A DNA stretch of 64,000 nt from an uncultured Syntrophomonadaceae bacterium (GTDB lineage Bacteria > Bacillota > Dethiobacteria > DTU022), in contig CAYTER010000006.1 in assembly GCA_964436815.1 (NCBI GenBank), forward strand, positions 2,591 to 66,590. The letters run 5' to 3'. Each line of letters starts with the position of its first letter. Position 1 is the stretch's first letter. A model generated the notes under the pieces. It had not been told where the DNA came from. It ran no database searches and worked only from the letters and a program-made list of their open reading frames with translations. Positions 19,204 through 37,079 of the stretch are shown here, one piece after another. The translations under genes and the position numbers were made by a program.

Positions 19204-19223
19204 AAACAGGAGGTTTATGGCAA

Positions 19224-21900: not shown

Positions 21901-23088
21901 ATGGACAAGCCACTGTCTGGATTAAAGGTAGTTGATTTGAGCCGTTTTATCGCCGGGCCTTACTGTACGATGAAACTCGGTGATATGGGAGCGGACGTAA
22001 TTAAAGTGGAGACACCGGGGAGGGGGGACGATTCCCGTGAACTTGGACCGCCTTTCCTGGAAGGCGAGTCAGCTTACTATATGTCCTTTAACCGCAACAA
22101 AAAGAGCATCACCTTAAATCTCAGGGAAGCAAAGGCGCGGGATATCTTACAGCAGCTAATTGCTGAAGCTGATGTGTTCGTCGAAAACTTCCGTATCGGG
22201 GTTACCGCTCAAATGGGGCTGACCTACGAAGATGTAAAAAAGATAAAGGAAGATATTATTTATTGTTCAATCACCGGCTATGGCCATAATAGTCCCTACC
22301 GGGAGAAACCGAGTTTTGATGTTATGATCCAGGGCGAGGCTGGTTTGATGAGTATCACCGGGTTTCCAGACGGTCCGCCTCAACGCCTCGGGGTGGCCAT
22401 CGCCGATATTTTAGGTGGTTTTCATGCTGTCGAGGGTATACTTTTGGCATTGCTGGTAAAAAATAGAAGCGGCAAGGGTCAGTTTGTCGATGTGTCGCTG
22501 ATGGATTCGATCATTGCTATATTAACTTATCAGGCGGGCAATTTTCTGGCAACCGGTAGAGCACCAGGCCGCGTTGGCAATCGGCATCCAATGATCACCC
22601 CTTACGAGAGTTTTGAAACAGAAGACGGTTACGTGATCTTTGCGGTCGGCAACCAGCGCCTGTGGGAGAGTTTTATCAAAGCGTTGGGGAAGGAAGAACT
22701 TAATGAAGATCCACGCTTTGCTGATATGAAAAGCCGTAACCAGAATCCGGCTGAGTTGAAGGCTATTATTGAAGATCTCACCCGGCGGAAAACCACCGAA
22801 AAGTGGGTGGAGATAATGGAAAAAGCCGGGGTGCCCTGCGGCAGGATCAGGACCATTGATCAAGTCCTGACTGATCCCCATGTGGATATTCGCGAAATGG
22901 TTGTCGAAACAGCTCATCCACTGGCCGGTAAAGTCAAGCTGATTGGCGTTCCGACCAAGCTATCCCTTACTCCCGGCGCCGTTACCCTGCCACCGCCAAC
23001 ACTTGGCCAGCATACAGAGGAAATCTTAGTCAGCCTTGGGTTAACACAAAAAGAAATCAGTGATTTACGGGAAAAAGGTGTTATATAA
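21901..23088 (+). CDS. Family-III (CaiB/BaiF/Frc-type) CoA-transferase
   Basis: 395 aa. LSGLKVVDLSRFIAGPYCTMKLGDMGADVIKVE and AIADILGG (catalytic Asp context). Confidence 0.9.
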   Translation: MDKPLSGLKVVDLSRFIAGPYCTMKLGDMGADVIKVETPGRGDDSRELGPPFLEGESAYYMSFNRNKKSITLNLREAKARDILQQLIAEADVFVENFRIGVTAQMGLTYEDVKKIKEDIIYCSITGYGHNSPYREKPSFDVMIQGEAGLMSITGFPDGPPQRLGVAIADILGGFHAVEGILLALLVKNRSGKGQFVDVSLMDSIIAILTYQAGNFLATGRAPGRVGNRHPMITPYESFETEDGYVIFAVGNQRLWESFIKALGKEELNEDPRFADMKSRNQNPAELKAIIEDLTRRKTTEKWVEIMEKAGVPCGRIRTIDQVLTDPHVDIREMVVETAHPLAGKVKLIGVPTKLSLTPGAVTLPPPTLGQHTEEILVSLGLTQKEISDLREKGVI

Positions 23089-23977
23089 AACCTTACCAGC
23101 AAAATGGCAGGCGCTTGATCTCGACTCTGATCAGGGCCGTCATACACTGAGTCCGCTATCGATTCATCAGCATGTAGTCAATTTTCAGGTTGATGGCGGA
23201 CCGCATCTGCTATTCGTTGCTGATCAGGATCTGTCCAAAGGCCCGGCATCGATCGGCCTTACAAATGAAAGTTTCAGGTTATTCTCACGCCAGGTTGAGC
23301 AAATAGCTGCAGGCTGGTATGATCATCACCAACTTTTTATCGAAACCGAGTCCGTTAAGCTGGTTATTGACCGGTGCACAGGAGAAAAAATATCCTTTGC
23401 TCCGGTTTTTTTCAATGCTTTAAACGATAATGCATCATTGACTGTTCTGAATTGTTATGAAAAATTACTGAAGAGTAACGATATACCTACCCCGGCAGCG
23501 GTTTTGCTGAATTGTAACGGAGGAGAGGATTATTACCGACAGGCTATTGCCCAGAGCTTTTCTTCTATAATTAACGCACTGATTTATCAAAAGAGGCAGG
23601 AATTGATTAAATATTGTCGAAATATTTGCGGGATGGGTCATGGTCTGACTCCCAGCGGTGATGATCTAATCCATGGCGCGTTGATTGCCTTTAGTGCTTG
23701 CGGTAAGCCGGGAAAAGATTTTTTCAGGCTAGTACAGTTAGAAATGAAAGAGCTCTCAACTCTGACCGGCTTGTTTGGCTGGCATATGATCGATACAGGA
23801 TGCCGGGGTTTAACCGCAGAACCGCTGATCAGGTATCTTGAGGCAATCAACAGCGGTGTTTATGAGCCGGCAATTCTTGCAGAAGTGCTGAAAATTGGCT
23901 CCAGAACCGGCTATGATCTGGCGATAGCGGTAACAGCGACGCTTTCAGCGCTGCTGAAAAAAAAGATATTTAGATAA
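23060..23977 (+). CDS. DUF2877 / AllH (YlbF)-like protein
   Basis: 305 aa. GMGHGLTPSGDDLIHGALIAF motif. The start is uncertain: GTG 23060 overlaps the upstream gene by 29 nt, and an in-frame GTG at 23078 is an alternative. Confidence 0.7.
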   Translation: MIYGKKVLYKTLPAKWQALDLDSDQGRHTLSPLSIHQHVVNFQVDGGPHLLFVADQDLSKGPASIGLTNESFRLFSRQVEQIAAGWYDHHQLFIETESVKLVIDRCTGEKISFAPVFFNALNDNASLTVLNCYEKLLKSNDIPTPAAVLLNCNGGEDYYRQAIAQSFSSIINALIYQKRQELIKYCRNICGMGHGLTPSGDDLIHGALIAFSACGKPGKDFFRLVQLEMKELSTLTGLFGWHMIDTGCRGLTAEPLIRYLEAINSGVYEPAILAEVLKIGSRTGYDLAIAVTATLSALLKKKIFR

Positions 23978-24203: not shown

Positions 24204-25568
24204 ATGAGTGAAGGCAGGACTATGGTTTACACGCTGGATGAAGTACCAAAGCCATTTGGCAGAGCATTAGGTCTCGGTATCCAGCACGTGCTAACCATGT
24301 TTGGCGCCACTGTTTCGGTTCCGCTGATTATTGCGCCGGCTCTCGGTGCAACACCGGAACAAATTGCTATTCTCGTCGCATCAGTTATGCTCGCATCTGG
24401 TATTGCAACATTTTTCCAGGTTAACTTCGGAACCCGACTGCCGATTATCCAGGGTGTATCGTTCTCATTTTTAGGACCATTCTTTGCAATTATCGGTTTG
24501 ACGGTTGCCGGAGGCATGGAGATGTCGATGCAGTATATCGCCGGTGCTATTCTGCTCGGTGCAATCGTGGAGATGCTAGTCGGGTTTACCGGATTGATCG
24601 GTAAACTGCAGAAATTCGTCAGCCCGGTTGTTATCGGTCCAGTTATCGCTATGATCGGTTTAGCTCTTTACCAGGCCGGCGCTCCGCTTGCTGCCGCAAA
24701 CTGGTGGCTGGCTATCACCGTTATCGTATTCGCATTTTTCTTCTCACTTATTTTAGGACCGAAAAAACCGTTCTTTGCTCTCTTCCCGATTCTGTTAGCG
24801 ATCATTGTCGCTTACGTCCTCGGCATTATCCTCGGGGAAGTAAGCTTCGATGCCGTAAGAAACGCTCCCTGGATCCGTCTTCCCTGGGGTCCGGGCGGCT
24901 GGGTTCTGCCCTGGGGCATGCCCAAATTTGAAATTGGCTTCGTGCTGATCATTTTGGCCGGTTACCTGGCTTCGATGATCGAATCCTACGGGGATTATCA
25001 TGCTATTAATGAAGCAGCAGAGGGACCGCCACTTACCGATAGGCAGATCAGCCGCGGTATCGGCATGGAAGGGTTAGGCTGCTTTGTCGGCGCCCTCTTT
25101 GGCGGTCTGGCCAGCACCAGCTACACCGAGAATATCGGTTTGGTCGGTCTGACGAAAGTGGCAAGCCGCTATGTTGTTAATATCGGTGTGGTAATACTGA
25201 TTCTGATGGGGATCATCGGCAAGTTCGGCGGCCTGGTCGCTACCATTCCCGGGGCTATTGTCGGTGGACTTTACTGCACCCTGTTTGGTTTAATCGCATC
25301 AATCGGTCTCAGCAACTCGGCTAAAGCTGATATGCACTCGATGCGTAACCAGATGATCATCGGTTTTATTCTTTTCATGGGTCTGAGTTTGCCCTATTAC
25401 TTCCAGACAGCCGGCGTATCCTTTGAACCGCAGTGGCTTTCTAACATCGTGGTATCAATCGGATCGACCGGTATGGCCGTAACTGCAATCCTGGGATTAA
25501 TTCTCGACAACATCATCCCCGGGACAGATGAAGAGCGCGGTCTGCACATGTTTGGTGAAAAGAAATAA
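24204..25568 (+). CDS. NCS2-family nucleobase (xanthine/uracil/urate-type) permease
   Basis: 454 aa, polytopic. QGVSFSFLGP and YTENIGLVGLTKVASR signature regions. Confidence 0.9.
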   Translation: MSEGRTMVYTLDEVPKPFGRALGLGIQHVLTMFGATVSVPLIIAPALGATPEQIAILVASVMLASGIATFFQVNFGTRLPIIQGVSFSFLGPFFAIIGLTVAGGMEMSMQYIAGAILLGAIVEMLVGFTGLIGKLQKFVSPVVIGPVIAMIGLALYQAGAPLAAANWWLAITVIVFAFFFSLILGPKKPFFALFPILLAIIVAYVLGIILGEVSFDAVRNAPWIRLPWGPGGWVLPWGMPKFEIGFVLIILAGYLASMIESYGDYHAINEAAEGPPLTDRQISRGIGMEGLGCFVGALFGGLASTSYTENIGLVGLTKVASRYVVNIGVVILILMGIIGKFGGLVATIPGAIVGGLYCTLFGLIASIGLSNSAKADMHSMRNQMIIGFILFMGLSLPYYFQTAGVSFEPQWLSNIVVSIGSTGMAVTAILGLILDNIIPGTDEERGLHMFGEKK

Positions 25569-25595
25569 ATCTTTAAATTGAAATGCAGTTTTTAC

Positions 25596-25633
25596 AAAAA
25601 GAGAGGCAGGTATTCGACCTGCTTCTCTTTTTT
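25596..25633 (+). terminator. Rho-independent terminator after the permease gene
   Basis: AGAGAGGCAGGT-ATTCG-ACCTGCTTCTCT flanked by an A-run and a T-run, so it is potentially bidirectional. Confidence 0.6.
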
Positions 25634-25695
25634 AATAGTACTGTTTTGAGCCTTGGTACTGGGTGATTATCCGGGATGGTTTTCAGGGAAAATAA

Positions 25696-27393
25696 TCACA
25701 CTTTCTGGCTGCGGAAAAGTTTTAGTATATTAACGGCTATTTCTAAATTAAGCGAATCCTCCGGGTTATCCAGGCTAATACCGGTCAGCTCTTCAATTTT
25801 CCGGATCCGGTAGAGCACGGTATTATAATGAGTAAATAGTTTGGTTGAAGTCAGCTTCAGGTTACGATTCGTGTCGTAATAAGTTTCGAGTGTTTTCACT
25901 AACTCCCCTTTGCGGGTTTGATCATAATCAAAGACAGGTTGTAGAAGTTCGTGCACAAAACTCTCAAGATCACCGCGGTTTTTCTCACTTAGTATTTTAT
26001 AAAAACCAAGATTATCATAGAAAACAACCTGGGTTCGATCGGAAAGCTGGGCAATTCTAAGTGCTTCCCGCGCTTCTTCCAAACTGCGGCTAATCTTGCG
26101 CAGGTCGGAATAGTTCCTGCCTACCCCGATATTAAGCGAATCTCCGGAACGAAGGGTCGCGTTTAAGTAATTAGCCAGATCAGTCACGATCTCTTTCAGG
26201 TGGGCGTTGGGATTACCGCCACTGATGCTTCCGACGATGACAATGTTGTTTCCCTTGATGCCGGCAATGAAATTCTCAACGCCGGCCTGTTTGAAGAATA
26301 TATTAATCAATTTGAGCAGGCTTTCCTTTGAACGAGATCCGTTTATATTCATATATTGCTTTATTTCAGTGATCTGATCAACACTGTTATCATTAACGAG
26401 AATTACAGCTGTCGGCAGTTCTAAGTTAATATTAAACACCTTGCCGCGGCTGACAATTTCACCGCTGTTTTCAAAATCGCAGGAAAGCAAAATCTCCAGA
26501 AAATCATTATAATAACTCTTTTCAATTTCATAGATCGCCTTGCGCTTTGTAAATTCAAGCGCCGCTATGGTAGCTGCTCTTTCCATGGTCAGAATATCGG
26601 GTTCGAAAACAGGGTTATTGACAATAGCCACCATGTGGCCGTACTGATATTTATCAGCGATAATCGGTATCCGCAGCGCTTTAATCGTCAAGGGAATATC
26701 AGTTTCGGAGGTGTATTCGAGAGAATACTTGACTTCTTTAATGTTGCCGAAACGAAGCTTTTCTTTCTTGATTTCGATGCTGCCATCAGAGAAAAAGAGT
26801 TCGAACTTGTATTTATCCGGGCAGTCATCGTTGACAATAATGAACCCTTCCCGGTCTGCGATTGCAACAGGATTTGAGATTAGTTTTCCTGTTTCTTTGC
26901 ATAGTTCTTCCAAAGGGCTGCCGTTTAAAGCAAGATCCATTAATTTATTATGAGCCTGCTCCAGTTTTTGCAGAATTTTATTCTGCTTGTTAAAGACAAC
27001 ACCGAGAATCGGGGCAATTATTTCAGAGAAAGAAAGGTCAAAGGGGACTTCCAAAAGGGGGATATCATGGGTATTAGCGCTTTCAATCATTTCAGCGGGT
27101 ATCTCGGACATGTAACGCTTGGTCTTAATGGCCAGAGCGGCGCTGCTGGTCTCATCCATCCGGGGAATCAGTGATTTCATCAGTTCCGGGTATTCACGGA
27201 ATGAATAGCCTGTGGTCAATAAAAACTCTCCATCAATCAGCCAGTCCATAATATCCGGGACTTCGATGACATTAACCAGCTTGATCACCCGATCAAGGCC
27301 ACGTTCGCCTCCAACTAGCTTCAAACGGTCCACAACATCTAAAGAGAGCGCTTCGCGAACAGTAATACCATATTGCTTTTGCATGAGAACCAC
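25696..27393 (-). CDS. PucR-family (purine catabolism-type) transcriptional regulator
   Basis: 565 aa. N-terminal PucR/PurC-like domain (VIEVPDIMDWLIDGEFLLTTGY) and C-terminal PucR HTH (LFTHYNTVLYRIRKIEELTG). Confidence 0.85.
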   Translation of the reverse strand: MVLMQKQYGITVREALSLDVVDRLKLVGGERGLDRVIKLVNVIEVPDIMDWLIDGEFLLTTGYSFREYPELMKSLIPRMDETSSAALAIKTKRYMSEIPAEMIESANTHDIPLLEVPFDLSFSEIIAPILGVVFNKQNKILQKLEQAHNKLMDLALNGSPLEELCKETGKLISNPVAIADREGFIIVNDDCPDKYKFELFFSDGSIEIKKEKLRFGNIKEVKYSLEYTSETDIPLTIKALRIPIIADKYQYGHMVAIVNNPVFEPDILTMERAATIAALEFTKRKAIYEIEKSYYNDFLEILLSCDFENSGEIVSRGKVFNINLELPTAVILVNDNSVDQITEIKQYMNINGSRSKESLLKLINIFFKQAGVENFIAGIKGNNIVIVGSISGGNPNAHLKEIVTDLANYLNATLRSGDSLNIGVGRNYSDLRKISRSLEEAREALRIAQLSDRTQVVFYDNLGFYKILSEKNRGDLESFVHELLQPVFDYDQTRKGELVKTLETYYDTNRNLKLTSTKLFTHYNTVLYRIRKIEELTGISLDNPEDSLNLEIAVNILKLFRSQKV

Positions 27394-27619
27394 CCCTTTT
27401 TATAGTCAGGACAAGTCGTGCAACGGGAGGTAAACGCTGTTAATTAGTTTGTAGCATATTTACAAAGGTTAAACAATATTTTAGTGATATAATCTAAAGG
27501 AAATTCTTAATAAATGTTTAATTTTTAAAATTGTCGATGCAAATCTAAAATAATTGGGTCGTTAAGCAAAAATGATCTGTTTCTAAAAATTCAAATTAAA
27601 AAGCAGGAGGTTGTTATTT

Positions 27620-29176
27620 TTGGTTCTGAAAAGCTACATCTCGAAAAATATGTTTCGTGATTCAGTTTACCTGATGAGACTTTCAAATACAGTAAGAGGT
27701 TTTGATGGAGTGATTGAAGCCGAAGTAATAATCGGCACTGATCATAACAAGAAATTTTTACGTTCCGGCGGGCTCTGGTCAGAAGAAATTGAACGGGAAG
27801 CCGGCGCTAATGATTTAATTATTGCCATTAAAGCAGAGACTGAAGAGAAGGCTGAACAGGCCATACAGGGTGCTCTTGATGAACTCAATAAATCGGTGGA
27901 ACGGGAGAACCTTTTAGGCGAGTTTGTACCGCGGACATTTGAAACAGCGTTAAAGAATTTCCCCGGAGCTAATATGGCTCTGATCTCAATACCCGGCAGA
28001 TATGTCGAGCGGGAAGTAGACCAGATTCTTGACTCCGGACTTAATGTGATGATCTTCAGTGATAATGTCAGTATTGAAGCAGAGATTGCTTTAAAGAAAA
28101 AAGCTAAGAACAAAGGGCTGCTTGTGATGGGACCTGACTGTGGAACCGCCATTATCAATGGTGTTCCACTGGCATTTGCCAATGAAGTCAAAAGAGGCAA
28201 GATCGGTATTGTTGCCGCTGCCGGAACCGGTTTGCAGGAAGTATCAACCCTGATCAGTAATCTTGGCGAAGGAATCAGCCAGGGTATCGGCACCGGTGGT
28301 CGTGATGTGAAGGAAGCAGTCGGTGGAATCAGTATGCTGATGGCGCTGGAAGCCCTGCTCGAAGACGAGAAAACTGAAATAGTGGTTCTAGTTTCCAAGC
28401 CGCCGGATAAAAGCGTAACAGAGAAAGTACTTGAGTTGGCGAAAAAGAGCAGAAAACCGGTTATAGTCAATTTTTTAGGCGGCGATCTTGCTCAAGTCGA
28501 ATCAGCAGGTTGTATACCCGCTGTTACGTTAAAGGAAGCCGCCTACAAAGCGGTCAGCCTGGTACGCAAACAGGAAGTAGGTCCGGAGGCTAAGCAACAA
28601 GCCGATAAAAAACTGGCGGAAAAAGAGCAAAATAAACTGGCAGGCAGCCAGAAATATCTACGGGCGCTTTATTCAGGCGGCACCCTGGCTTATGAAGCAT
28701 TAGTCATGCTGGAGGGTCAAATTAAACCAATTTATACCAATTTGAGTTATCGGAGTGCTAAAAAAATCGAAGATGTTTATAGAAGTCGTGAACATACGGT
28801 TATTGACTTTGGAGAAGATGAATTTACCCAGGGAAGACTTCACCCGATGATCGATCCTACGTTACGCAACAGCCGGATCCTGAATGAAGCCAAAGACCCG
28901 GAAACGGCTGTAATCATGCTTGACCTTGTGCTCGGGTATAACGCTCATCCTGATCCGGCCGGTTCAGCATTGGAAGCAATTAAAGAAGCTCAGCAAATAG
29001 CGAAAAATGATGGGAGAAGTATCACCTTTGTTACTTCTGTCTGCGGCACTGATCAGGACCCGCAAAAAAGAAACGAACAGGTAGCCAAACTCGAAAAAGC
29101 CGGTGTTCACGTTTTTGAAAGCAATGCTGATGCAGTCGCTTTCCTGGCTATGGTTCTGTCATTTAAGAAGGAATAA
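27620..29176 (+). CDS. fdrA: FdrA (AllF)-family protein, succinyl-CoA-synthetase-alpha-like
   Basis: The ORF track starts at TTG 27611, which abuts the RBS. The in-frame TTG at 27620 is 9 nt after AGGAGG. The N-terminus FRDSVYLMRLS resembles E. coli FdrA, and a CoA-ligase-like core follows (GIVAAAGTGLQE). Confidence 0.85.
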   Translation: MVLKSYISKNMFRDSVYLMRLSNTVRGFDGVIEAEVIIGTDHNKKFLRSGGLWSEEIEREAGANDLIIAIKAETEEKAEQAIQGALDELNKSVERENLLGEFVPRTFETALKNFPGANMALISIPGRYVEREVDQILDSGLNVMIFSDNVSIEAEIALKKKAKNKGLLVMGPDCGTAIINGVPLAFANEVKRGKIGIVAAAGTGLQEVSTLISNLGEGISQGIGTGGRDVKEAVGGISMLMALEALLEDEKTEIVVLVSKPPDKSVTEKVLELAKKSRKPVIVNFLGGDLAQVESAGCIPAVTLKEAAYKAVSLVRKQEVGPEAKQQADKKLAEKEQNKLAGSQKYLRALYSGGTLAYEALVMLEGQIKPIYTNLSYRSAKKIEDVYRSREHTVIDFGEDEFTQGRLHPMIDPTLRNSRILNEAKDPETAVIMLDLVLGYNAHPDPAGSALEAIKEAQQIAKNDGRSITFVTSVCGTDQDPQKRNEQVAKLEKAGVHVFESNADAVAFLAMVLSFKKE

Positions 29177-29220
29177 TATGGTGCTATTTTATACGAGCTG
29201 CTAAACGGGAGGCAGAGCTG

Positions 29221-29382
29221 ATGAAAAAACTCTTTGAAAGCGAACTAAAAGTAATTAATATCGGCCTTGAGGGATTTGCCGATACCCTGAAGGAGAGAGA
29301 AACGCCTGTAATGCACGTACGCTGGCAACCACCCGCCATGGGCGATAGTGATCTGTTGAGCCTGCTGGATAAATTAAAATAA
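29221..29382 (+). CDS. Unannotated 53-aa ORF between fdrA and the DUF1116 gene
   Basis: Below the ORF-track length cutoff. ATG lies 8 nt after GGGAGG (29207-29212). Translates to MKKLFESELKVINIGLEGFADTLKERETPVMHVRWQPPAMGDSDLLSLLDKLK*. It fills the otherwise non-coding gap almost exactly. Confidence 0.5.
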   Translation: MKKLFESELKVINIGLEGFADTLKERETPVMHVRWQPPAMGDSDLLSLLDKLK

Positions 29383-29404
29383 TTTTCTGGAGGTGTGCTT
29401 TAAA

Positions 29405-30706
29405 ATGAGTAAGTATGATCAGGCAAATCAGGAAGCGGTTAAGAGAATGATGCTTTCCAGACCGGTCTGGGTTGATGTGGGACGGGCTAAAGATGTAATC
29501 CCCGGGATGAAAGACAACCTCTTTCTTCATGCCGGCCCGCCAATCAGCTGGGAGCGGATGAGCGGTCCCCTGAAAGGAGCAATCATCGGTGGGCTGATTT
29601 ATGAGGGTAAAGCCAAGAACCGTGAAGAAGCTGAAAAACTGGCAGCATCGGGAACAATCGAATTTGCACCCTGTCATCATTACAACACGGTCGGACCGAT
29701 GGCCGGGGTTACAACACCTTCGCAAATGGTCTTTATTTTAGAGGACAAAGAGTGGGGCGGTTTCACCTATTCAAACATGAACGAAGGTTACGGAAAAGTT
29801 TTGCGCTACGGCGCTTATGACGAATCAGTTTTAAACCGGCTGAAGTGGCTAGATGAAGTTTATGCTCCGGTTATTAGAGAAGCAGTACATCTGGCTAAGG
29901 GCATAGACATTAAAACAATCATTGCCCAGGCTTTACACATGGGGGACGACGGCCATAACAGGAACAGGGCGACCACATCCCTTTTCATTCGTAGCATTGC
30001 TCCATTTATTGCCGAGACACAGTGGGGCAAAAAAACTGATTATGATGCTCCGCGCCTTGATCTTTCAAATGTATCGGAATACTTCAAGGGGAAAAAAGCA
30101 ACAGCTGCTGCCGAGGTGCTGGCTTTCATGCACAGCAATGATTTAACCTCGCTTAATGCGATCATGGCTGCCTGCAAGAGTATGGCCCTGGCTGCCCACG
30201 GAGTGGAAAACTCGACTGTTGTAACTACCATGGCCCGCAACGGGACCGATTTTGGCATCAGGGTCAGCAGTACCGGTGACAAGTGGTTCACAGCACCGGC
30301 CAATGTACCCGATGGCCTTTATTTCTCAGGCTTCAGCGCATCTGACGCTAACCCTGATATCGGAGACAGCGTAATCACCGAAACAGTTGGAATAGGTGGA
30401 TTCGCCATGGCTGCAGCCCCGGCAATTGTAAACTTTATCGGCGGTTCACCGGCTGATGCCTTTGAGGCGACCAACGAGATGTTCGAAATAACAGTGGCAG
30501 AAAATAACAACTTCAATATACCCGCCATGGACTTTAAAGGCACCCCGACAGGAATCGATGTCCGAAAGGTTGTTGAAAAGGGCATAGTGCCTCGGATTAA
30601 TACCGGTATAGCTCATAAGGAGCCAGGTATTGGGCAGGTCGGAGCCGGTATTGTCAAGCCACCGATGGAAATCTTTGTCGCGGCGCTTAAAGAATTGGCA
30701 AAATAA
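29405..30706 (+). CDS. DUF1116 / AllG (YlbE)-like protein
   Basis: The ORF track starts at GTG 29393. I prefer ATG 29405 (MSKYDQANQEAV...) by analogy with the E. coli YlbE N-terminus. LHAGPPISWERMSGPLKGA and FAPCHHYNTVGPMAG. Confidence 0.85.
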   Translation: MSKYDQANQEAVKRMMLSRPVWVDVGRAKDVIPGMKDNLFLHAGPPISWERMSGPLKGAIIGGLIYEGKAKNREEAEKLAASGTIEFAPCHHYNTVGPMAGVTTPSQMVFILEDKEWGGFTYSNMNEGYGKVLRYGAYDESVLNRLKWLDEVYAPVIREAVHLAKGIDIKTIIAQALHMGDDGHNRNRATTSLFIRSIAPFIAETQWGKKTDYDAPRLDLSNVSEYFKGKKATAAAEVLAFMHSNDLTSLNAIMAACKSMALAAHGVENSTVVTTMARNGTDFGIRVSSTGDKWFTAPANVPDGLYFSGFSASDANPDIGDSVITETVGIGGFAMAAAPAIVNFIGGSPADAFEATNEMFEITVAENNNFNIPAMDFKGTPTGIDVRKVVEKGIVPRINTGIAHKEPGIGQVGAGIVKPPMEIFVAALKELAK

Positions 30707-30751
30707 AGATATATCAAGCTAATATTACTTTTATGGAGGTGATCCAACCAA

Positions 30752-31588
30752 ATGCTTTCTTACGACTATGTTAAATGCGCCGACTTAAAGCAGGCTTTTG
30801 AGATCCTGAAAAGCAATGAGCACGCGCTACCTTTTGCCGGCGGAACCGATTTGATGGTCGGGATGCGTGGCGGTAAATTTGCTCCCCGCCTTTTGGTTGA
30901 TATTAAAGGCCTGGAGGAGCTTCATGTTCTTAAAGAAGATGATTCAGGAATTACAGTTGGTGCTGCAGTTACCCTAAATCAGATCGCACTTTTTGACCCA
31001 ATCGTTAAAAACGCCACCCCCCTGGCTGAGGGCGCTCATAGCGTAGGCAGCTATGCAATCCGTAACAGGGCGACTCTGGCCGGTAATATTTGCAACGCCT
31101 CGCCGGCTGCAGACACAGCTGCTCCATTATATAGCCTGGCAGCTGTGATAAACCTGATTGGTCCGGATCAGAAGCGATCCATGCCGATTGAAGAATTTTT
31201 TCTCGGTCCCGGCAGGACTGCATTGCAGAAAGGTGAGCTAGTCCACTCTTTTTTAATCCCAAAACCATACGCGAACGGAAAAGGAGTTTATTTTAAAGCA
31301 TCAAGGACCGGTTCGGTTGACCTTTCAACAGTGGGAGTTGCGGTTCAAAATTGGAGCGGCAAGGTAAGAATTGCCGTAGGTGCTGTTGCCCCGACGCCGG
31401 TCAGAGCTTTTCAGGTTGAGAAAGCGATCAATGAAGGCGGAGAAAAAGATTGGGCAAAAGCTGCAAGATTGGTCCATGAGGACATTTCACCGATCACGGA
31501 TCTGAGAGGTTCACGTGACTATCGCTACCATATCGCCGAGGTTCTGGTCCGCCGTGGACTCGAGCAGACATTGGGGGTGTGGAAATGA
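30752..31588 (+). CDS. Xanthine-dehydrogenase-family FAD-binding (medium) subunit
   Basis: 278 aa. FAGGTDLMVGMR and RNRATLAGNICNASPAAD. Confidence 0.9.
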   Translation: MLSYDYVKCADLKQAFEILKSNEHALPFAGGTDLMVGMRGGKFAPRLLVDIKGLEELHVLKEDDSGITVGAAVTLNQIALFDPIVKNATPLAEGAHSVGSYAIRNRATLAGNICNASPAADTAAPLYSLAAVINLIGPDQKRSMPIEEFFLGPGRTALQKGELVHSFLIPKPYANGKGVYFKASRTGSVDLSTVGVAVQNWSGKVRIAVGAVAPTPVRAFQVEKAINEGGEKDWAKAARLVHEDISPITDLRGSRDYRYHIAEVLVRRGLEQTLGVWK

Positions 31589-32052
31589 CAAAAACAGTAA
31601 CCCTTAACTTTACTGTAAATGGTGATCGTGAAACCAGGGAAACTTATATTGGGCAAACCCTGTTAAAATTTATCCGGGAGGAACTGCACCTGACCGGCAC
31701 CAAGGAAGGCTGTGAAATTGGTGAATGCGGGGCCTGCACAGTATTATTGAATGGTAAACCAGTCAATAGTTGTCTGGTTCTGGCGGTTGAGCTCGATGGC
31801 AAGGAACTGGTAACAATTGAAGGTTTGTCAAAAAATGGCGAACTTGACAAGCTTCAAAAAGCCTTTATCAAGCATGCTGCTTTTCAATGCGGTTATTGCA
31901 CGCCGGGAATGATCATGGCGGGAAAGGCGCTTCTGGATCGAAAGCCTAACCCGACAGATGAGGATATAAACGAAGCCTTAAGCGGTAACCTCTGCCGTTG
32001 CGGCGCTTACCAGGAAATCAGAGAGGCAATCAAAGCCTCAGCGAAAAGTTAA
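31585..32052 (+). CDS. Xanthine-dehydrogenase-family [2Fe-2S] (small) subunit
   Basis: I prefer ATG 31585 (ATGA overlap with the upstream stop). GCEIGECGACTV and QCGYCTPGMIM...CRCGAY. Confidence 0.9.
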   Translation: MTKTVTLNFTVNGDRETRETYIGQTLLKFIREELHLTGTKEGCEIGECGACTVLLNGKPVNSCLVLAVELDGKELVTIEGLSKNGELDKLQKAFIKHAAFQCGYCTPGMIMAGKALLDRKPNPTDEDINEALSGNLCRCGAYQEIREAIKASAKS

Positions 32053-32071
32053 GGAGAAAGGAGGAATATAA

Positions 32072-34369
32072 ATGGCGGATTTAAAATATGTGGGAACTTC
32101 AGTTCCGCGAAAAGACGCTGTCGATAAAGTAACCGGTGCGGCGGAGTTTATTGATGACCGATTTCTTGGCCCCTTACTTTATGTAAAAATGAAAAAGAGT
32201 ACCGTTGCCCACGGTAAAATCAAAAAACTGGATATAGCCAAAGCCGCAGCTCACCCGGGAGTAAAGACAGTGATGACCGGTAAGGATTATCCGAATAAAA
32301 TAGGGCTTTACCTGGTTGACAGAGACTTTGTCGCTGTTGATAAAGTTCGTTTTATCGGTGAACCGGTCGCCATAGTGGCTGCAACGAGTGAAAGAGCAGC
32401 CCTTGAAGCTGTTGAACTCATTGAAGTTGAATATGAAGAGCTACCCGGGGTTTTTGATCCCCGCGAGGGCATGAAACCTGAGTCGCCACTGGTCCACGAA
32501 AATTTGGAAGCCTACGAAAGAGTGCCGATCTTCTATCCAGTGCCGGGCACTAATATCAGCAACCATTTTAAACTGCGCAAAGGCGATGTGGAAAAAGGTT
32601 TTGCTGAAGCAGACCTGGTGATCGAGCGTGACTACTATGTGCCGCAGATGCAACATGTACCGATCGAAACGCATAAGGCTGCAGCTCAATGGAGCCCGGG
32701 CGGCAAACTAACGGTTTGGAGTACTGCTCAATCACCAAACGTAGTGCGGCAGTTGCTGGCCAAAGCTTTTGAACTGCCAATGCAGAATATCAGGGTAATT
32801 TCCAGCTATATCGGCGGTGGTTTCGGTTGTAAGGCCGGCGCTTCCCTTGAGGGCCTGGTTATACCGATCGCCATGAAATTCCCCGGCTATGTAGCCAAAA
32901 TAGTCTTCAATCGTGAGGAAGATATGCAGGGCACTTTTATGCGTCAGGGCCTCTATTCAACGCTTAAAACAGGGGTCCGTAAAAATGGACGGATCACTGC
33001 CCTGGAATATAAAATGGTCTGGGATGGTGGAGCCTACACCGAGTATGGTGTCAATATCGTCAGGGCTGCCGGTTACAGCTCAACAGGCGCTTATGACATT
33101 CCGAATGTAAAAACAGATTCATATTGTGTCTACACCAACAATTCAATTGGCGGCCCGGTACGTGGCTTTGGCATGTGTGAAATGCAGTGGGGCATTGAAC
33201 GTCAGATTGAAGAGATTGCCAAAGAGCTAAAGATGGATCCGCTGGAAGTGCGCCTGCTTAACGGCATGAAAGAAGGCTCAACGACCGCAGCCGGTCAGGT
33301 GGTTCATCATGTAGCTTATGACAAATGCCTTAAAACTGTAGCGGATAAGATTGGCTGGGGTAAAAAGGAGGGCAAGTTCCGCGGCAAAGGGATAGCCGGA
33401 TTAGTTAAATGCCCGGCCCAGCCGAGCAACGCTGCTTCATCGGCGATCATCCGCATTAATGAAGATGGCAGCGCCCACGTGATGATTGGGGCTACTGAGA
33501 TGGGCCAGGGTATGCTGACCGCAATCAGCCAGATCGCGGCTGAAGGCCTGAATATCCCGGTGGATAAGATTGATATCAAGGTTCCCGATACCGATTTTAC
33601 CCCTTACGAATGGCAGAGCGTAGGCAGCAGGGTTACTTATACCTGCGGAACTGCTGTAAAACGGGCTGCGGCAGATGCCCTGGGGCAGATTTATTCTGTA
33701 GCATCCAACCTGCTGGAAGTACCGAAAGAAGACTTAAGTTTTGACGGTAAAATGGTTTATTCAACTAAAGATAAAAACATCAAAGCGACGATCAGGGAGG
33801 TAGCAGACAGCTGCAAGAAGTGCACCGGTGAGGGTATAGCCGGACCGATTATCGGCCGTGGTTCTTTTGTGCCATCCAATATGACCAACCTTGATCCGGA
33901 AACCGGACAGGGTAATCCCGGTCTCTTTTACTGTTTCGGAGCAACGGCAGTTGAAGTGGAAGTTGACCCTGAAACCGGGGTAATTACTGTATTACAGCTG
34001 GCCAGCTCAATTGATGCCGGCAAGGCTGTAAACCCGCAGCTCTGTCATGTGCAGCTACATGGTGGAGCAATAATGGGACTTTCTACTGCTCTATACGAGG
34101 AAGTAAAGTTCGACAAGGGTGTGATGCTAAACCGTAACTTTACAGATTACAAGATAGCAGCAATCGACAATACCCCATATCTTGACAGTTTCATCATTGA
34201 GACACCTGAGGAAAACGGACCGTACGGCGCCCGGGGTATCGGCGAACAACCGATGATCGGTGTAGCTCCGGCAATTGCCAATGCGGTGTGCGACGCCCTG
34301 GATATTGATGTGAACACATTCCCATTAACACCGGAGCGTGTCTGGCAGGCTATTAAAGCTAAAAAATAA
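32072..34369 (+). CDS. Xanthine-dehydrogenase-family molybdopterin-binding (large) subunit
   Basis: 765 aa. a/b-hammerhead N-terminus, GGGFGCK, and an ARGIGEQP active-site Glu context. Confidence 0.9.
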   Translation: MADLKYVGTSVPRKDAVDKVTGAAEFIDDRFLGPLLYVKMKKSTVAHGKIKKLDIAKAAAHPGVKTVMTGKDYPNKIGLYLVDRDFVAVDKVRFIGEPVAIVAATSERAALEAVELIEVEYEELPGVFDPREGMKPESPLVHENLEAYERVPIFYPVPGTNISNHFKLRKGDVEKGFAEADLVIERDYYVPQMQHVPIETHKAAAQWSPGGKLTVWSTAQSPNVVRQLLAKAFELPMQNIRVISSYIGGGFGCKAGASLEGLVIPIAMKFPGYVAKIVFNREEDMQGTFMRQGLYSTLKTGVRKNGRITALEYKMVWDGGAYTEYGVNIVRAAGYSSTGAYDIPNVKTDSYCVYTNNSIGGPVRGFGMCEMQWGIERQIEEIAKELKMDPLEVRLLNGMKEGSTTAAGQVVHHVAYDKCLKTVADKIGWGKKEGKFRGKGIAGLVKCPAQPSNAASSAIIRINEDGSAHVMIGATEMGQGMLTAISQIAAEGLNIPVDKIDIKVPDTDFTPYEWQSVGSRVTYTCGTAVKRAAADALGQIYSVASNLLEVPKEDLSFDGKMVYSTKDKNIKATIREVADSCKKCTGEGIAGPIIGRGSFVPSNMTNLDPETGQGNPGLFYCFGATAVEVEVDPETGVITVLQLASSIDAGKAVNPQLCHVQLHGGAIMGLSTALYEEVKFDKGVMLNRNFTDYKIAAIDNTPYLDSFIIETPEENGPYGARGIGEQPMIGVAPAIANAVCDALDIDVNTFPLTPERVWQAIKAKK

Positions 34370-34392
34370 CACTCAAGAGGGTTTTAAGATTG

Positions 34393-34425
34393 GGGGTACG
34401 GGTTAATACCGTGCCCCTTTATTTT
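34393..34425 (+). terminator. Rho-independent terminator after the Mo-subunit gene
   Basis: GGGGTACGG-loop-CCGTGCCCC, then TTTATTTT. Confidence 0.55.
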
Positions 34426-34506
34426 ATGCCTATGCATAAAATGCATCTCCTTTAGTTTGTAGTATAATTATGATGTTATTAAGAAGACGGCAAAAGGAAG
34501 GAACCG

Positions 34507-35304
34507 ATGATTCCTAAATTAGTAGTGATCAGAGGTGCCGGTGATCTGGCAACAGGAGTTGCCCATCGTCTCTGGCAGGCAGGGTTTGAGCCGGTTATGC
34601 TTGAACTCGAAAAACCGCTGGTCGTCCGCCGCACGGTATCGTTTGCCACGGCAGTATTTGAGAAGTCAATAACCGTGGAGGGCATTACGGCCATGCTTGG
34701 CTCTAGTGCAGAAGATGCCTGTAAATTATTGAACAGTAATATAATACCGGTTATTATTGATCCGGATGCAGGATCACTCGCAACCTTGCAACCCAAAATA
34801 GTAGTCGATGCCACTATGTCCAAAGGAAATGTGATTACCAGTCTGAACGATGCTCAACTGGTGATCGGTTTAGGGCCGGGTTTTTCAGCGGGTGTTGATG
34901 TCCATGCAGTTGTAGAGACAAAGAGGGGGCATTCACTGGGCAGAGCCATTTATCAGGGTTCTGCAGCCGAAGATACAGGCGAGCCGGGGTTAATAGCCGG
35001 GTATGGCCGTGAAAGACTGCTTCGTGCGCCGGTTAATGGGACAATAAAACCGGCTAAAGATATAGGTGCACTGGTAGAGAAGGGTGAAGTTGTCGCTACA
35101 GTAGATAAAATACCGATCAAGGCAGAAATAAGCGGAATGTTGCGGGGTATGCTCTACCCGGGTTTGACAGTAAGCCGGGGGGTTAAAGTCGGCGATATTG
35201 ATCCCCGGGGTGTAGAAGTTGATTATTTAGCAATCTCCGACAAGGCCAGAGCGATCGGCGGTGGCGTTCTCGAAATAATCCTGAACCGTTATTTCAAGTA
35301 TTAA
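34507..35304 (+). CDS. yqeB: YqeB-family selenium-dependent molybdenum hydroxylase system protein
   Basis: 265 aa. The N-terminus VVIRGAGDLATGVAHRLWQAGFEPVMLE and the overall size match my recollection of the YqeB (EF2563-type) family. Context: next to an XDH-family enzyme and yqeC. Confidence 0.7.
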   Translation: MIPKLVVIRGAGDLATGVAHRLWQAGFEPVMLELEKPLVVRRTVSFATAVFEKSITVEGITAMLGSSAEDACKLLNSNIIPVIIDPDAGSLATLQPKIVVDATMSKGNVITSLNDAQLVIGLGPGFSAGVDVHAVVETKRGHSLGRAIYQGSAAEDTGEPGLIAGYGRERLLRAPVNGTIKPAKDIGALVEKGEVVATVDKIPIKAEISGMLRGMLYPGLTVSRGVKVGDIDPRGVEVDYLAISDKARAIGGGVLEIILNRYFKY

Positions 35305-35388
35305 CAAAACTTATTAACTGTCCCGGGTTAAAAGATGATGATCCCCCTTTAAAAAGGGTAAAAGCAAATAATAATTGGAGGAATATAG

Positions 35389-35661
35389 ATGTCTGCTGAA
35401 TCTATTAAACAAAATAATCCAGAACTAGAATACTGCTACTGCCACGAATGTCACAAACTGCGGGAAGCGGTCGATTTGGTTCTGACCGAAAAGGGTCTGC
35501 AATGCCGCTACTGCGGAGGTTATAATTTTGACCAGGCCGGCTGGGTCGTTTGCCCTCACCATAAAATATCTGCTGTCAAGTGTCCACGTTCCGGCAAGGG
35601 AATTATTGCAAGTGAAAACGGTCTGGAATGCACTGACCGCTGCTTTTTCCGTTCGATCTGA
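35389..35661 (+). CDS. Small Cys-rich (9 Cys in 90 aa) zinc-ribbon-like protein, uncharacterised
   Basis: Good RBS (TGGAGG 6 nt upstream). CxCxxC...CxxC knuckles plus four further Cys. Sits between yqeB and yqeC. Confidence 0.6.
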   Translation: MSAESIKQNNPELEYCYCHECHKLREAVDLVLTEKGLQCRYCGGYNFDQAGWVVCPHHKISAVKCPRSGKGIIASENGLECTDRCFFRSI

Positions 35662-35679
35662 AACACGGGGAATTAAGAT

Positions 35680-37068
35680 GTGGATCAGCTTACACTTAAC
35701 CATGCACTGCAACTGAGGAGACCTGCTGTTGTCTCCTTCTTTGGCGCGGGTGGAAAAACTTCCCTGATGCTGAAACTGGCAGGAGAGCTTGCCGATAATA
35801 AACTAAAAACTGTTATTACGACAACAACCAAAATCTATCCTCCCGCTAATCTGCCGCTTATTTTGGCCTCAGATACAATCCCGGCGCTGAAAGAAATCAA
35901 TCAATGTCTAAAAAAGTCTGACATTGTTGTACTCGGCAGCAGCATTTCTGCAGACGAAAAACTTAAAGGCATCGAGCCGGAGATGGTTTCGGAAATCCAA
36001 AATTCTCTTGAAAGCTTTGTTTTAGTAGAAGCTGACGGGGCGAATCGCAAGCCGCTAAAGGGCTTCAACCGCTATGAACCAGTTCTGCCAAAAGATTCCA
36101 ACCATGTCCTTGCTGTAGTTGGAGCCGATGCCCTGGGAAAGATGATCAACGAAACTATTGTACACAGATTGAACATGTTTTCTGTCGCCACAGGTTTAAA
36201 TAAAGGCGAATCAATAACCGTATCTACCCTGGAACGGATATACCGTTATATGCTGGAAGCTGGTGAACCCCAGGCACCGGAGGCCATATTTACAGCTGTC
36301 CTGAATAAGGTGGATCTGCTAAGTAAACCGGAAGAAGTTGCCCTTAATTTATCAGCGGCGATGGCTAAATGCGGATCTGCCTATCGCAATTTACTCTTAA
36401 CTACAACGGCCGAAGCAGATCCGGTTAAATTTCTGATTAGCACTGACTCAAAGCCAGTCAGGGTAAAAGTAGCCGCGATAATCCTCGCGGCCGGGCGATC
36501 TGAAAGGATGGGCGAGGATAAGCTTAATTTAAAACTAGGTGGCATCACTGTCTTTGAACATACGCTGAAAGCGGTTCTAAAAGCCGGAGCCGATCAGATT
36601 ATCATTGTCGTGCGGCCTGATAGCACTTTAAGCGGACTGGCTGAAAAAGAGCAGTGCAGGATTGTGGTTAATCCTGCCCCTGAAACAGGTCTTTCTTCCT
36701 CACTGAAAGTAGGTTTAAGTGCTGTAGATGATACTTGCCAGGGGGTGCTTTTCGCTCTCGGGGATCAACCATTGACCCCGGTTACGGTTTACCGGGCTTT
36801 AATCAAAAGTTACCGGAATACTCTTAAAAAAATCACCTGTCCGCTGTTTGAAGGCAGAAGAGGCAATCCAACCATATTTGACCGACGAACATGGCCGGAA
36901 CTACTGTTGCTCGAAGGTGACCAGGGCGGAAGATCGCTTATCGATCAATCTGCTGAAGATCAGATCGAATACCTGGCAGTCGACGATCCTGCCGTTGTTG
37001 CCGACCTCGATACTCCAGAAGACTATATTCGTTTTCAGCGTGCTTTCAAAATGATGGAGCATTCTTAA
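35680..37068 (+). CDS. yqeC: Fusion of a YqeC-family selenium-dependent hydroxylase accessory protein (N-terminal) with a MocA/MobA-like molybdenum-cofactor nucleotidyltransferase (C-terminal)
   Basis: 462 aa, GTG start 8 nt after GGGGA. The N-terminus has VSFFGAGGKTSLMLKLA (P-loop, YqeC-like). The C-terminus, from about residue 265, has AAIILAAGRSERMGEDKL...LGDQP (NTP_transf_3/MobA-like). Confidence 0.75.
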   Translation: MDQLTLNHALQLRRPAVVSFFGAGGKTSLMLKLAGELADNKLKTVITTTTKIYPPANLPLILASDTIPALKEINQCLKKSDIVVLGSSISADEKLKGIEPEMVSEIQNSLESFVLVEADGANRKPLKGFNRYEPVLPKDSNHVLAVVGADALGKMINETIVHRLNMFSVATGLNKGESITVSTLERIYRYMLEAGEPQAPEAIFTAVLNKVDLLSKPEEVALNLSAAMAKCGSAYRNLLLTTTAEADPVKFLISTDSKPVRVKVAAIILAAGRSERMGEDKLNLKLGGITVFEHTLKAVLKAGADQIIIVVRPDSTLSGLAEKEQCRIVVNPAPETGLSSSLKVGLSAVDDTCQGVLFALGDQPLTPVTVYRALIKSYRNTLKKITCPLFEGRRGNPTIFDRRTWPELLLLEGDQGGRSLIDQSAEDQIEYLAVDDPAVVADLDTPEDYIRFQRAFKMMEHS

Positions 37069-37079
37069 CTGCACTTAAA

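Follow-up and report, generated by a model that had tools for sequence, protein, structure and literature searches.

A widespread gene module joining AllFGH-type transcarbamylase subunits to a molybdenum hydroxylase, with selenium markers in Syntrophomonadaceae and a possible role in nucleobase catabolism

What does a locus do that carries genes for an AllFGH-type transcarbamylase next to those for a xanthine dehydrogenase (XDH)-family hydroxylase and its selenium-associated maturation factors? Such a locus lies within 64,000 nucleotides of contig CAYTER010000006.1 (positions 2,591 to 66,590, forward strand; assembly GCA_964436815.1), hereafter the window, from an uncultured Syntrophomonadaceae bacterium. 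As judged from its sequence, it joins a predicted AllFGH transcarbamylase to the maturation set of selenium-dependent molybdenum (Mo) hydroxylases, without the context genes of either. We find that the pairing of AllF and AllG with the hydroxylase belongs to a module shared by 80 or more species-level genomes, among them Bacillota, Chloroflexota, and members of further phyla. Our tentative answer to the question is that window positions 21901-37068 form one catabolic cluster for a nucleobase, for which uracil and/or thymine would be the most likely substrates.

Relatives of the locus were collected by searching an AllG alignment against one genome per species, which returned at least 566 relatives. 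The best 80 loci were taken and, together with three loci reached via the Mo subunit, form a comparison set of 83, many of them incomplete; labels such as L002 and L007 denote individual loci of this set. The AllG of the window is 57-96% identical to the 80 species-level relatives, and the nearest genomes are uncultured Syntrophomonadaceae metagenome-assembled genomes (MAGs; 95-96%). Partner genes were counted over the 83 loci by a tblastn panel and by unbiased clustering of open reading frames (ORFs), both agreeing. A subset of 33 loci is well flanked, with at least 6 kb on either side of AllG.

The initial annotation had described the locus as a fusion of two gene sets that are separate in Escherichia coli. 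Instead of a one-off fusion, we find a widespread module: XDH subunits are present in 29 of the 33 well-flanked loci, which come from several phyla, and a PF04199 cyclase is present in 27. An amide hydrolase and either a CoA-transferase of dicarboxylate type or a ligase are likewise encoded in most of these loci. The view that AllF/AllG and the XDH-family enzyme make up a single conserved unit is thus borne out, as both occur in those 29 loci. Across all 83 loci, AllF is co-located in 63-69, the PF04199 cyclase in 62-64, the XDH FAD and FeS subunits in 61-62, and the Mo subunit in 53-55. Further partners are NmrA-like proteins (28 loci), family III CoA-transferases (22-27), NCS2 permeases (21-25), CN_hydrolase proteins (23-24), CoxG (19), Amidase proteins (PF01425; 18), XdhC (10), AMP-ligases (7), Bmp/PnrA-type ABC transporters (7), and carbamate kinases (5; L002, L003, L010, L014, and L015), the last being 40-47% identical to AllK/YqeA. 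We also examined the contexts of three Mo subunit homologs, from a Joint Genome Institute (JGI) MAG (70% identity), Carboxydothermus islandicus (52%), and Alkaliphilus peptidifermentans (51%). All three loci carry AllF, a separate ORF for the AllF tail, AllG, an NCS2 permease, a PF04199 cyclase, a CN_hydrolase, and a family III CoA-transferase, while a PucR regulator and a carbamate kinase are each found in two of the three.

In gene content, the unit differs from each of the two E. coli regions with which its parts had been compared. None of the 83 loci has AllC, AllD, AllE, YgeW, YgeX, YgeY, YgfK, or SsnA, and AllB is represented only by an AllB-like amidohydrolase of 26% identity in 3 loci. 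RutA and RutB are absent from all 83 as well. In the window, tblastn over the whole 64 kb (E ≤ 1e-3) found no match to YgeX, YgeY, HyuA, YgfK, AllB, AllC, AllD, AllE, or AllK/YqeA, nor to a PF04199 cyclase or a CN_hydrolase. The sole match to YgeW is a genuine ornithine carbamoyltransferase (25% identity), and the sole match to SsnA is an amidohydrolase in a methylthioadenosine (MTA)-salvage context (26% identity). The absences that the initial annotation had listed (the ygeW-ygfU neighborhood genes, allantoinase, ureidoglycolate enzymes, and carbamate kinase) therefore hold across the window. With their genes absent from both the window and the related loci, the E. coli-type allantoin and ygeW-ygfU (2,8-dioxopurine) routes were rejected.

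Gene content of this kind makes it quite probable that the hydroxylase and AllFGH are functionally coupled. The coupling is probably not direct, as had been supposed, since a PF04199 amide or lactam hydrolase is co-located in the large majority of related loci. Relatives of PF04199 with known structures are kynurenine formamidase and isatin hydrolase, both of which are amide or lactam hydrolases.

Genes were assigned to families by Pfam and NCBIfam/TIGRFAM profile scores relative to curated cut-offs (Table 1). Every gene that the initial annotation had named was confirmed at the same position, and the terminator-like hairpin is present as well. Its gene list thus stands; its left boundary does not. 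An AllH gene and a CoA-transferase gene, both missed earlier, lie just upstream of the permease gene, so that the locus starts at ~21901 and not at 24204. Their ORFs overlap by 11-29 bp, according to the choice of start; the gene caller places the AllH start at 23078. The gap between allG and the first XDH gene is 45 nt.

Table 1. Features of the locus and its surroundings, with positions in the window.
Feature	Position	Strand	Evidence or remark
Ornithine carbamoyltransferase	19155..20156	+	TIGR00658 429 bits (cut-off 281)
Family III CoA-transferase (dicarboxylate type)	21901..23088	+	PF02515 451 bits
AllH-like (DUF2877), predicted third OXTCase subunit	23060..23977	+	PF11392 58 bits (cut-off 25)
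Motif TTGGTTAAGCAAAAA	24114..24128	+	Upstream of permease; candidate regulator site
NCS2 nucleobase:cation symporter	24204..25568	+	PF00860 291 bits
PucR-family regulator, divergent from allF operon	25696..27393	-	PucR, GGDEF_2, HTH_30 domains
11-mer TTAGTTTGTAG	27444..27454	+	pucR-allF spacer; exact repeat at 34452-34462, 45 nt before yqeB
AllF/FdrA main body, 521 aa	27611..29176	+	NF004760 509 bits (cut-off 433)
Detached AllF C-terminal tail, 53 aa	29221..29382	+	NF004760 positions 508-555
AllG (DUF1116)	29393..30706	+	PF06545 303 bits
XDH-family FAD subunit	30752..31588	+	FAD_binding_5, CO_deh_flav_C
XDH-family 2x[2Fe-2S] subunit	31579..32052	+	Fer2, Fer2_2
XDH-family molybdopterin (Mo) subunit, clade 2	32072..34369	+	Ald_Xan_dh_C, MoCoBD_1, MoCoBD_2
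Intrinsic-terminator-like hairpin	34392-34418, with T-rich tail to 34428	+	Between Mo subunit and yqeB
YqeB, short form without XdhC domain	34507..35304	+	TIGR03309 350 bits (cut-off 220)
Cys-rich 90-aa ORF, 9 Cys	35389..35661	+	Between yqeB and yqeC
YqeC-MocA fusion (MocA, molybdenum cofactor cytidylyltransferase type)	35680..37068	+	PF19842 147 bits, PF12804 131 bits

By homology, each of the three subunits that make up the oxamic transcarbamylase (OXTCase) of E. coli has a counterpart in the locus. AllF is 39% identical to E. coli AllF, contains CoA_binding and Ligase_CoA domains that make it succinyl-CoA-synthetase-alpha-like, and has FdrA (3dmy_A) as its best Protein Data Bank match. AllG is 44% identical to its E. 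coli counterpart, and AllH is 27% identical over 104 aa. The AllH gene is also called on the source metagenome contig (ENA ERZ17914141, NODE_346, 66.7 kb) and is conserved in L007-L009, L014-L016, and L020. Purified E. coli AllFGH, encoded in the allFGHK operon, is an OXTCase (Kim & Kim 2024; PMC11326118), and by analogy the AllFGH step here probably forms carbamoyl phosphate. The XDH-linked AllG proteins of Bacillota and Chloroflexota are 62% identical to each other, compared with 46-49% between either group and E. coli AllG; their substrate may therefore differ from that of the E. coli enzyme.

A small ORF between AllF and AllG had been noticed in the initial annotation, and we identify it as the split-off tail of AllF. 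Its 53-aa product is 44% identical to residues 511-555 of E. coli FdrA/AllF. The tail is a separate ORF of 53-61 aa in other Bacillota loci too, while the lengths of AllF in Chloroflexota (~575 aa) and E. coli (555 aa) fit a fused tail. The junction is spanned by two independent DNA assemblies, neither of which has an indel there. This, together with the same split in other Bacillota, rules out a frameshift or assembly artefact and indicates that the gene is truly split. The tail is in a different frame from the AllF body in the window and in L004; in L002, the locus of the JGI MAG, the tail ORF begins in the same frame right after the AllF stop codon.

The three hydroxylase subunits are 30% (FAD subunit, to XdhB), 44% (2Fe-2S subunit, to XdhC), and 29% (Mo subunit, to XdhA) identical to E. 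coli proteins, the Mo subunit being 28-29% identical to both XdhA and XdhD. It falls below every XDH equivalog cut-off: NF043082 (536 bits, cut-off 780), PRK09970 (500, cut-off 916), pucD (395, cut-off 784), and xdhB (292, cut-off 850). Its closest solved structure is the alpha subunit of 4-hydroxybenzoyl-CoA reductase (1rm6_A, 347 bits), and it scores 534 bits against the model for that enzyme, TIGR03194 (cut-off 995).

Active-site residues of the large subunit, which the initial annotation had singled out for inspection, were compared with those of bovine XDH. The window protein reads GGGFGCK followed by Ala255, which we take to be the position of bovine Glu802. Four residues, R331, R364, F366, and E725, are conserved in all 17 Mo proteins of the window's clade. 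Of these, E725 presumably corresponds to the catalytic Glu (bovine E1261), R364 and F366, which form an R-G-F motif, presumably to R912 and F914, and R331 probably to R880. With all equivalog cut-offs failed and Ala at the Glu802 position, unlike bovine XDH, a canonical xanthine dehydrogenase was rejected.

The AllG-linked Mo subunits form two clades, one of the window type (17 loci) and one of the Chloroflexota type (34 loci), which are ~30% identical and differ in pocket residues. Four Chloroflexota loci (L051, L062, L081, and L026) carry two complete XDH-type sets, one from each Mo clade. The same four carry two cyclase genes, a short one (~260-300 aa) and a long two-domain one (~557-590 aa). 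This doubling suggests two successive hydroxylation and ring-opening steps in these loci.

Is the hydroxylase selenium dependent? The YqeB and YqeC assignments made in the initial annotation are upheld by profile searches, with both proteins passing the curated cut-offs (TIGR03309 for YqeB, Table 1; TIGR03172 for YqeC, 165 bits, cut-off 73). The YgfJ/MocA-type model TIGR03310 gives 178 bits for the YqeC-MocA fusion (cut-off 186). YqeB shares 53% identity with residues 269-524 of the E. coli protein and adjoins the Mo subunit or other XDH genes in 8 related loci, and the YqeC-MocA fusion is kept in 7-8. TIGR03309 has been reported solely from selD-positive genomes (PMC2276186). Examples of selenium-dependent Mo hydroxylases are the XDH, purine hydroxylase, nicotinate dehydrogenase, and 2,8-dioxopurine dehydrogenase of Enterococcus faecalis, Clostridioides difficile, and Clostridium sporogenes (PMC2276186; PMC11448449; bioRxiv 10.1101/2025.04.24.650524). 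On these markers, the hydroxylase of the window is likely to depend on selenium.

The Cys-rich 90-aa protein is found at the same position in L007, L012, L014, and L016. It matches no Pfam or NCBIfam family, and among 5.8 billion proteins it has six homolog clusters, all at least 61% identical, which gave no functional clue. Possibly it handles metal or selenium together with YqeB and YqeC, as a partner specific to this lineage. YqeB, YqeC-MocA, and the 90-aa protein are limited to a Syntrophomonadaceae-like tier (8, 7, and 4 of the 83 loci, respectively), and Chloroflexota loci carry XdhC and CoxG in their place. Thus, the selenium markers appear to be a lineage-specific maturation choice. 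In L009, yqeC-mocA is followed by a gene for a 1069-aa AFOR_N-NuoE-NuoF fusion protein.

We next turn to the substrate, beginning with the permeases of the module. The window permease is below every NCBIfam equivalog cut-off (130 bits for the uracil-permease model NF007995, cut-off 477). Its nucleobase-ascorbate transporter (NAT) motif, TENIG, has Glu as in UraA and RutG, not Gln as in XanQ and UacT. With 60% identity to E. coli UraA, the permease of the Carboxydothermus cluster reads FEHGE at the UraA ligand positions; that of the Alkaliphilus cluster is 42% identical and reads FEDSE. Thirteen Chloroflexota permeases score 160-200 bits with UraA versus 45-100 bits with XanQ and UacT. The UraA residues F73, E241, H245, G289, and E290 are kept in the Carboxydothermus permease and these 13, not in that of Alkaliphilus.

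Other genes of the module also bear on the substrate. The Carboxydothermus cluster contains an mmdA-type biotin carboxyltransferase with oxaloacetate decarboxylase (OAD) gamma, biotin-carrier, and OAD beta subunits, which implies (methyl)malonyl-CoA as an end product. Three Anaerolineales loci (L023, L027, and L029) have genes for an amidohydrolase, an aspartate transcarbamylase (ATCase)-like protein, a fusion of orotidine monophosphate (OMP) decarboxylase with a phosphoribosyltransferase (PRTase), and a DHO_dh protein inside the module. This pyr-like run lies at ~15-19 kb in each locus, between AllH and NmrA/NCS2, and might serve catabolism as a "reverse pyrimidine biosynthesis" branch for orotate or dihydroorotate. 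An ATCase gene also lies between those for the CoA-transferase and AllH in one Syntrophomonadaceae locus (L015). The best NCBIfam matches of the CoA-transferase in the window are succinate-glutarate, oxalate (308 bits), mesaconate, and formyl-CoA (287 bits) transferases, all below cut-off.

Purine or urate, which the initial annotation had put forward as the substrate, is less likely than a pyrimidine, given the UraA-like linked permeases, the pyr-like genes, the mmdA set, and the non-canonical Mo subunit. By the same sequence comparisons, a pyrimidine is a candidate to which we give a little less than even confidence. By analogy, hydroxylation of uracil at C6 would give barbiturate, and hydrolytic opening of barbiturate would give ureidomalonate, the one-carbon-longer homolog of oxalurate.

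A route can be proposed on this basis. The base would be imported by the NCS2 permease, and the three-subunit Mo hydroxylase would oxidize a ring C-H, converting uracil to barbiturate. A ring-amide hydrolase, which in most relatives would be the PF04199 cyclase and is not encoded in the window, would open the ring to the N-acylurea ureidomalonate. AllF with its tail, AllG, and AllH would then phosphorolyze ureidomalonate to carbamoyl phosphate and malonamate, by homology to the E. coli OXTCase. From carbamoyl phosphate, a carbamate kinase (not in the window) would make ATP; alternatively, carbamoyl phosphate would be used in biosynthesis. An amidase or CN-hydrolase (not in the window) would free the dicarboxylate, and the CoA-transferase would convert it to (methyl)malonyl-CoA. 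YqeB, the 90-aa protein, and YqeC-MocA would build the cytosine-dinucleotide Mo cofactor and install a labile selenium ligand.

The ornithine carbamoyltransferase upstream of the cluster would be a possible sink for carbamoyl phosphate. Its membership of the cluster is uncertain, and a YolD and Y-family polymerase gene pair on the opposite strand separates it from the other genes. In L015, the corresponding place is taken by an ATCase-like gene. An alpha/beta hydrolase encoded at 37080-37958 was considered as the ring-opener and not adopted; it has a homolog in one related locus only, and it falls well short of the cut-off for a RutD-like protein. More speculatively still, the module as a whole may represent a widespread oxidative-phosphorolytic pathway for uracil and thymine, leading from (5-methyl)barbiturate to (methyl)malonyl-CoA, with a selenium-dependent first enzyme in Syntrophomonadaceae.

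How far the genes are expressed together was assessed from upstream motifs and public RNA data. The core 12-mer GTTAAGCAAAAA of the motif TTGGTTAAGCAAAAA occurs exactly both upstream of the permease and before allF (27561-27572); the motif may resemble the Bacillus subtilis PucR box. Close variants of the 11-mer TTAGTTTGTAG, with no more than 2 mismatches, lie in the corresponding pucR-allF spacer of L008, L009, L014, L015, L016, and L020, and a PucR gene is at the same position in 10 related loci. PucR probably regulates the flanking operons.

The hairpin after the Mo subunit gene has a stem of 10 pairs, 7 of them G-C, and is followed by a TATAAT box at ~34461. In two anaerobic-digester metatranscriptomes, word depth is 33-59 for the permease and 2-8 for allF, allG, and the Mo gene; depth of this contig-based kind tracks expression poorly, and a value of zero need not mean that RNA is absent. 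Co-regulation of the whole locus, as anticipated in the initial annotation, is weakly indicated by the shared upstream motifs and is not reflected in the RNA contigs, which end at the terminator. The maturation genes yqeB, the 90-aa ORF, and yqeC-mocA are probably a separate, weakly expressed unit. Terminator aside, the adjacency of yqeB-yqeC to XDH genes, conserved in 8 loci, argues for a functional link between them. An Rfam scan of 19000-39000 (E ≤ 1) found three tRNAs only, and no purine, xanthine, or Mo cofactor riboswitch. One metatranscriptome contig (run X9) matches the Mo gene up to window position 34387 and then continues with 209 letters unlike the window, probably from a related strain with a different neighbor downstream of the Mo gene.

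Several observations weigh against a uracil or thymine pathway that is complete and selenium dependent in this genome. PucR regulators and XDH-type enzymes are classically linked to purine catabolism. The window permease is of a different NCS2 subtype, somewhat nearer to the urate permease UacT (32% identity, 157 bits) than to UraA (113 bits), and at the UraA ligand positions it reads FEDTE instead of FEHGE. The likeness of the hydroxylase to uracil dehydrogenase is functional only. Most Chloroflexota loci have the other Mo clade, so that hydroxylation may not be the same step in every lineage. The ring-opening cyclase, the amidase or CN-hydrolase, and carbamate kinase are missing from the 64-kb window, and they are also not within reach in the closest relatives (L007, L008, L009, L016, and L020); the route is therefore incomplete here unless these genes lie elsewhere in the genome. 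No selD was found among the annotated genes of the window. RNA contigs reach 34339-34387, and none covers 34624-37227, where yqeB and yqeC lie. Finally, oxalurate is the only characterized AllFGH substrate (PMC11326118).

Oxalurate is also the intermediate on which a purine or urate pathway would converge. Here, a selenium-dependent xanthine or hypoxanthine (or urate-related) dehydrogenase would act first, AllFGH would split oxalurate into oxamate and carbamoyl phosphate, and oxamate would be converted to oxalate and oxalyl-CoA. Such a pathway would suit the regulator, the XDH-type enzyme, the proven AllFGH substrate, the UacT-like permease, and a CoA-transferase resembling oxalate and formyl-CoA transferases, and the known selenium-dependent Mo hydroxylases do act on purines and nicotinate. 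We nonetheless consider it doubtful. Allantoinase, allantoate/ureidoglycine hydrolase, and ureidoglycolate dehydrogenase were found neither in the window nor in the 83 loci, and no known path of one hydroxylation and one hydrolysis would seem to lead from a purine to an N-acylurea. The Mo subunit fails the XDH cut-offs and has Ala at the presumed Glu802 position, the linked permeases elsewhere are of UraA type, and the decarboxylase of the Carboxydothermus cluster is of the biotin/mmdA type, not a thiamine-dependent oxalyl-CoA decarboxylase. The FEDTE pattern, which fits neither UraA nor XanQ/UacT, would also be compatible with another N-heterocycle or cyclic ureide (of hydantoin/imidazolone type, parabanate, or a modified or methylated base) that is hydroxylated, opened, and phosphorolyzed by the same logic. 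Two divergent Mo clades on the same AllF/AllG/cyclase core suggest such substrate diversity, and additional redox steps are hinted at by the NmrA-like reductases and second XDH sets that many Chloroflexota loci encode. However, uracil itself is indicated by the UraA orthology in Carboxydothermus and by the Chloroflexota permeases, which retain the full set of UraA ligand residues, and with no specific alternative positively supported, we regard a different heterocycle as unlikely.

The resemblance of the Mo subunit to 4-hydroxybenzoyl-CoA reductase raises a further explanation, in which the hydroxylase acts on an acyl-CoA, in the manner of that enzyme or of furoyl-CoA dehydrogenase, and AllF/AllG would be an ADP-forming acyl-CoA synthetase that saves the energy of the thioester, and not a carbamoyltransferase. 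The nearest structure, the TIGR03194 score, the CoA_binding and Ligase_CoA domains of AllF, and the CoA-transferase in the cluster are in its favor. Yet that score is far under the cut-off, purified E. coli AllFGH is a transcarbamylase (PMC11326118), and carbamate kinase is co-located in 5 loci. Furthermore, the partners conserved in the loci are nucleobase permeases and amide hydrolases, with no sign of aromatic-acid genes, so that a CoA-thioester pathway is improbable. Chance juxtaposition of the permease/PucR, AllFG, XDH, and yqeB-yqeC units is more improbable still. The strong terminator-like hairpin, the unequal RNA word depth (33-59 for the permease, 0-8 for the rest), and the absence of cyclase, carbamate kinase, and amidase from the window would be expected of unrelated units, but the AllF/AllG-XDH synteny in 29 of the 33 well-flanked loci from several phyla, the position of yqeB-yqeC directly after XDH genes in 8 loci, the 45-nt gap between allG and the XDH genes, and the shared upstream motifs all speak against coincidence. 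Uracil and/or thymine catabolism thus remains the reading that we prefer, at the tentative level stated above.

The surroundings of the cluster contain several other recognizable gene groups. Upstream, a beta-oxidation-type block at 11404-19203 (+) encodes a short-chain dehydrogenase/reductase, a MaoC dehydratase, a DUF35/OB-fold protein, two thiolases, and a two-subunit CoA-transferase, which is consistent with a Syntrophomonadaceae host. The YolD-like gene and the Y-family (ImpB/MucB) translesion polymerase gene, between those for ornithine carbamoyltransferase and the CoA-transferase, lie at 20177-21750 (-), the segment with the highest GC content in the window (0.54); the pair is at the same spot in L007 and L008, and the polymerase gene also in L016 and L020. 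Downstream of the cluster are three tandem tRNA genes (38624-38873, -) and an MTA-salvage-like set (39015-43006, +), consisting of a PNP_UDP_1 phosphorylase, an IF-2B/MtnA-like isomerase, a TRZ/ATZ-type amidohydrolase resembling MTA/S-adenosylhomocysteine deaminases, and SurE. The amidohydrolase (40890-42212) was considered as SsnA and rejected: it is below cut-off, sits with the MTA phosphorylase, MtnA-like, and SurE genes, and is outside the locus. The segment 47196-49799 (+) encodes a 4Fe-4S ferredoxin-like protein and, after it, an aldehyde:ferredoxin oxidoreductase, which is also a tungsten/molybdenum pterin enzyme but belongs to another family than the hydroxylase. At 56249-64000, two glycyl-radical enzyme/activase pairs stand beside a proline-racemase-family gene, in a layout like that of hydroxyproline dehydratase clusters.

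In the published literature available as full text, subscription journals aside, nothing was found that links FdrA, DUF1116, or AllFGH with XDH-family enzymes, barbiturate, or ureidomalonate, and the uric acid pathway papers that were consulted mention neither FdrA nor DUF1116. If the proposed route is correct, the hydroxylase would be the first selenium-dependent Mo hydroxylase to act on a pyrimidine, lengthening the list of substrates for this enzyme class, and ureidomalonate would be the second physiological substrate for AllFGH-type transcarbamylases. Anaerobes could thereby gain ATP from a nucleobase via carbamoyl phosphate, a parallel to the recently solved 2,8-dioxopurine pathway of urate breakdown. 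If the substrate is a purine, the locus would instead mark a new branch of purine catabolism in anaerobes, one that depends on AllFGH. Two carriers of the module exist in culture, Carboxydothermus islandicus and Alkaliphilus peptidifermentans.

The locus combines features of several known systems. With loci marked by YqeB, YqeC, and YgfJ, it shares a YqeB domain, YqeC, and a MocA-type enzyme directly downstream of XDH structural genes. It differs from them in that YqeB has no XdhC domain, YqeC and MocA form one fused protein, and the gene for a Cys-rich protein of restricted lineage distribution lies between those for YqeB and YqeC. Compared with the E. coli ygeW-ygfU region in particular, it is without YgeW, YgeX, YgeY, HyuA, SsnA, YgfK, and YqeA. 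Canonical XDHs (E. coli XdhABC, B. subtilis PucCDE, Rhodobacter capsulatus XDH, and bovine xanthine oxidoreductase) have the same three-cofactor architecture, catalytic Glu, and R-G-F motif, but the gene order in the window is FAD-FeS-Mo. The likeness to E. coli AllFGHK lies in the presence of all three families, AllF, AllG, and AllH, with N-acylurea phosphorolysis to carbamoyl phosphate as the expected chemistry. Here, however, the 521-aa body of AllF and its 53-aa tail are encoded separately, AllH is in a separate upstream unit, and neither carbamate kinase nor nearby allantoin genes accompany them. Related loci, in turn, pair AllFG with an XDH-family hydroxylase, a PF04199 hydrolase, an amide hydrolase, and a CoA-transferase.

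The well-established bacterial routes of pyrimidine degradation are the reductive, Rut, and oxidative pathways. To our knowledge, the oxidative route has been described in aerobes only, and its genes are partly known. An AtzD-family barbiturase did not turn up in our searches, none of which was aimed at barbiturase. In aerobic actinobacteria, the oxidative pathway proceeds by uracil/thymine dehydrogenase, barbiturase, and ureidomalonase (PMC3758960, PMC4051656). The likeness to the route proposed here is functional only: in both, uracil would be hydroxylated to barbiturate and barbiturate opened to ureidomalonate. The differences are that a PF04199 hydrolase would take the place of barbiturase, that the hosts are anaerobes, and that the hydroxylase cofactor may carry selenium. 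Furthermore, whereas the aerobic pathway hydrolyzes ureidomalonate to urea and malonate, the module described here would phosphorolyze it to malonamate and carbamoyl phosphate.

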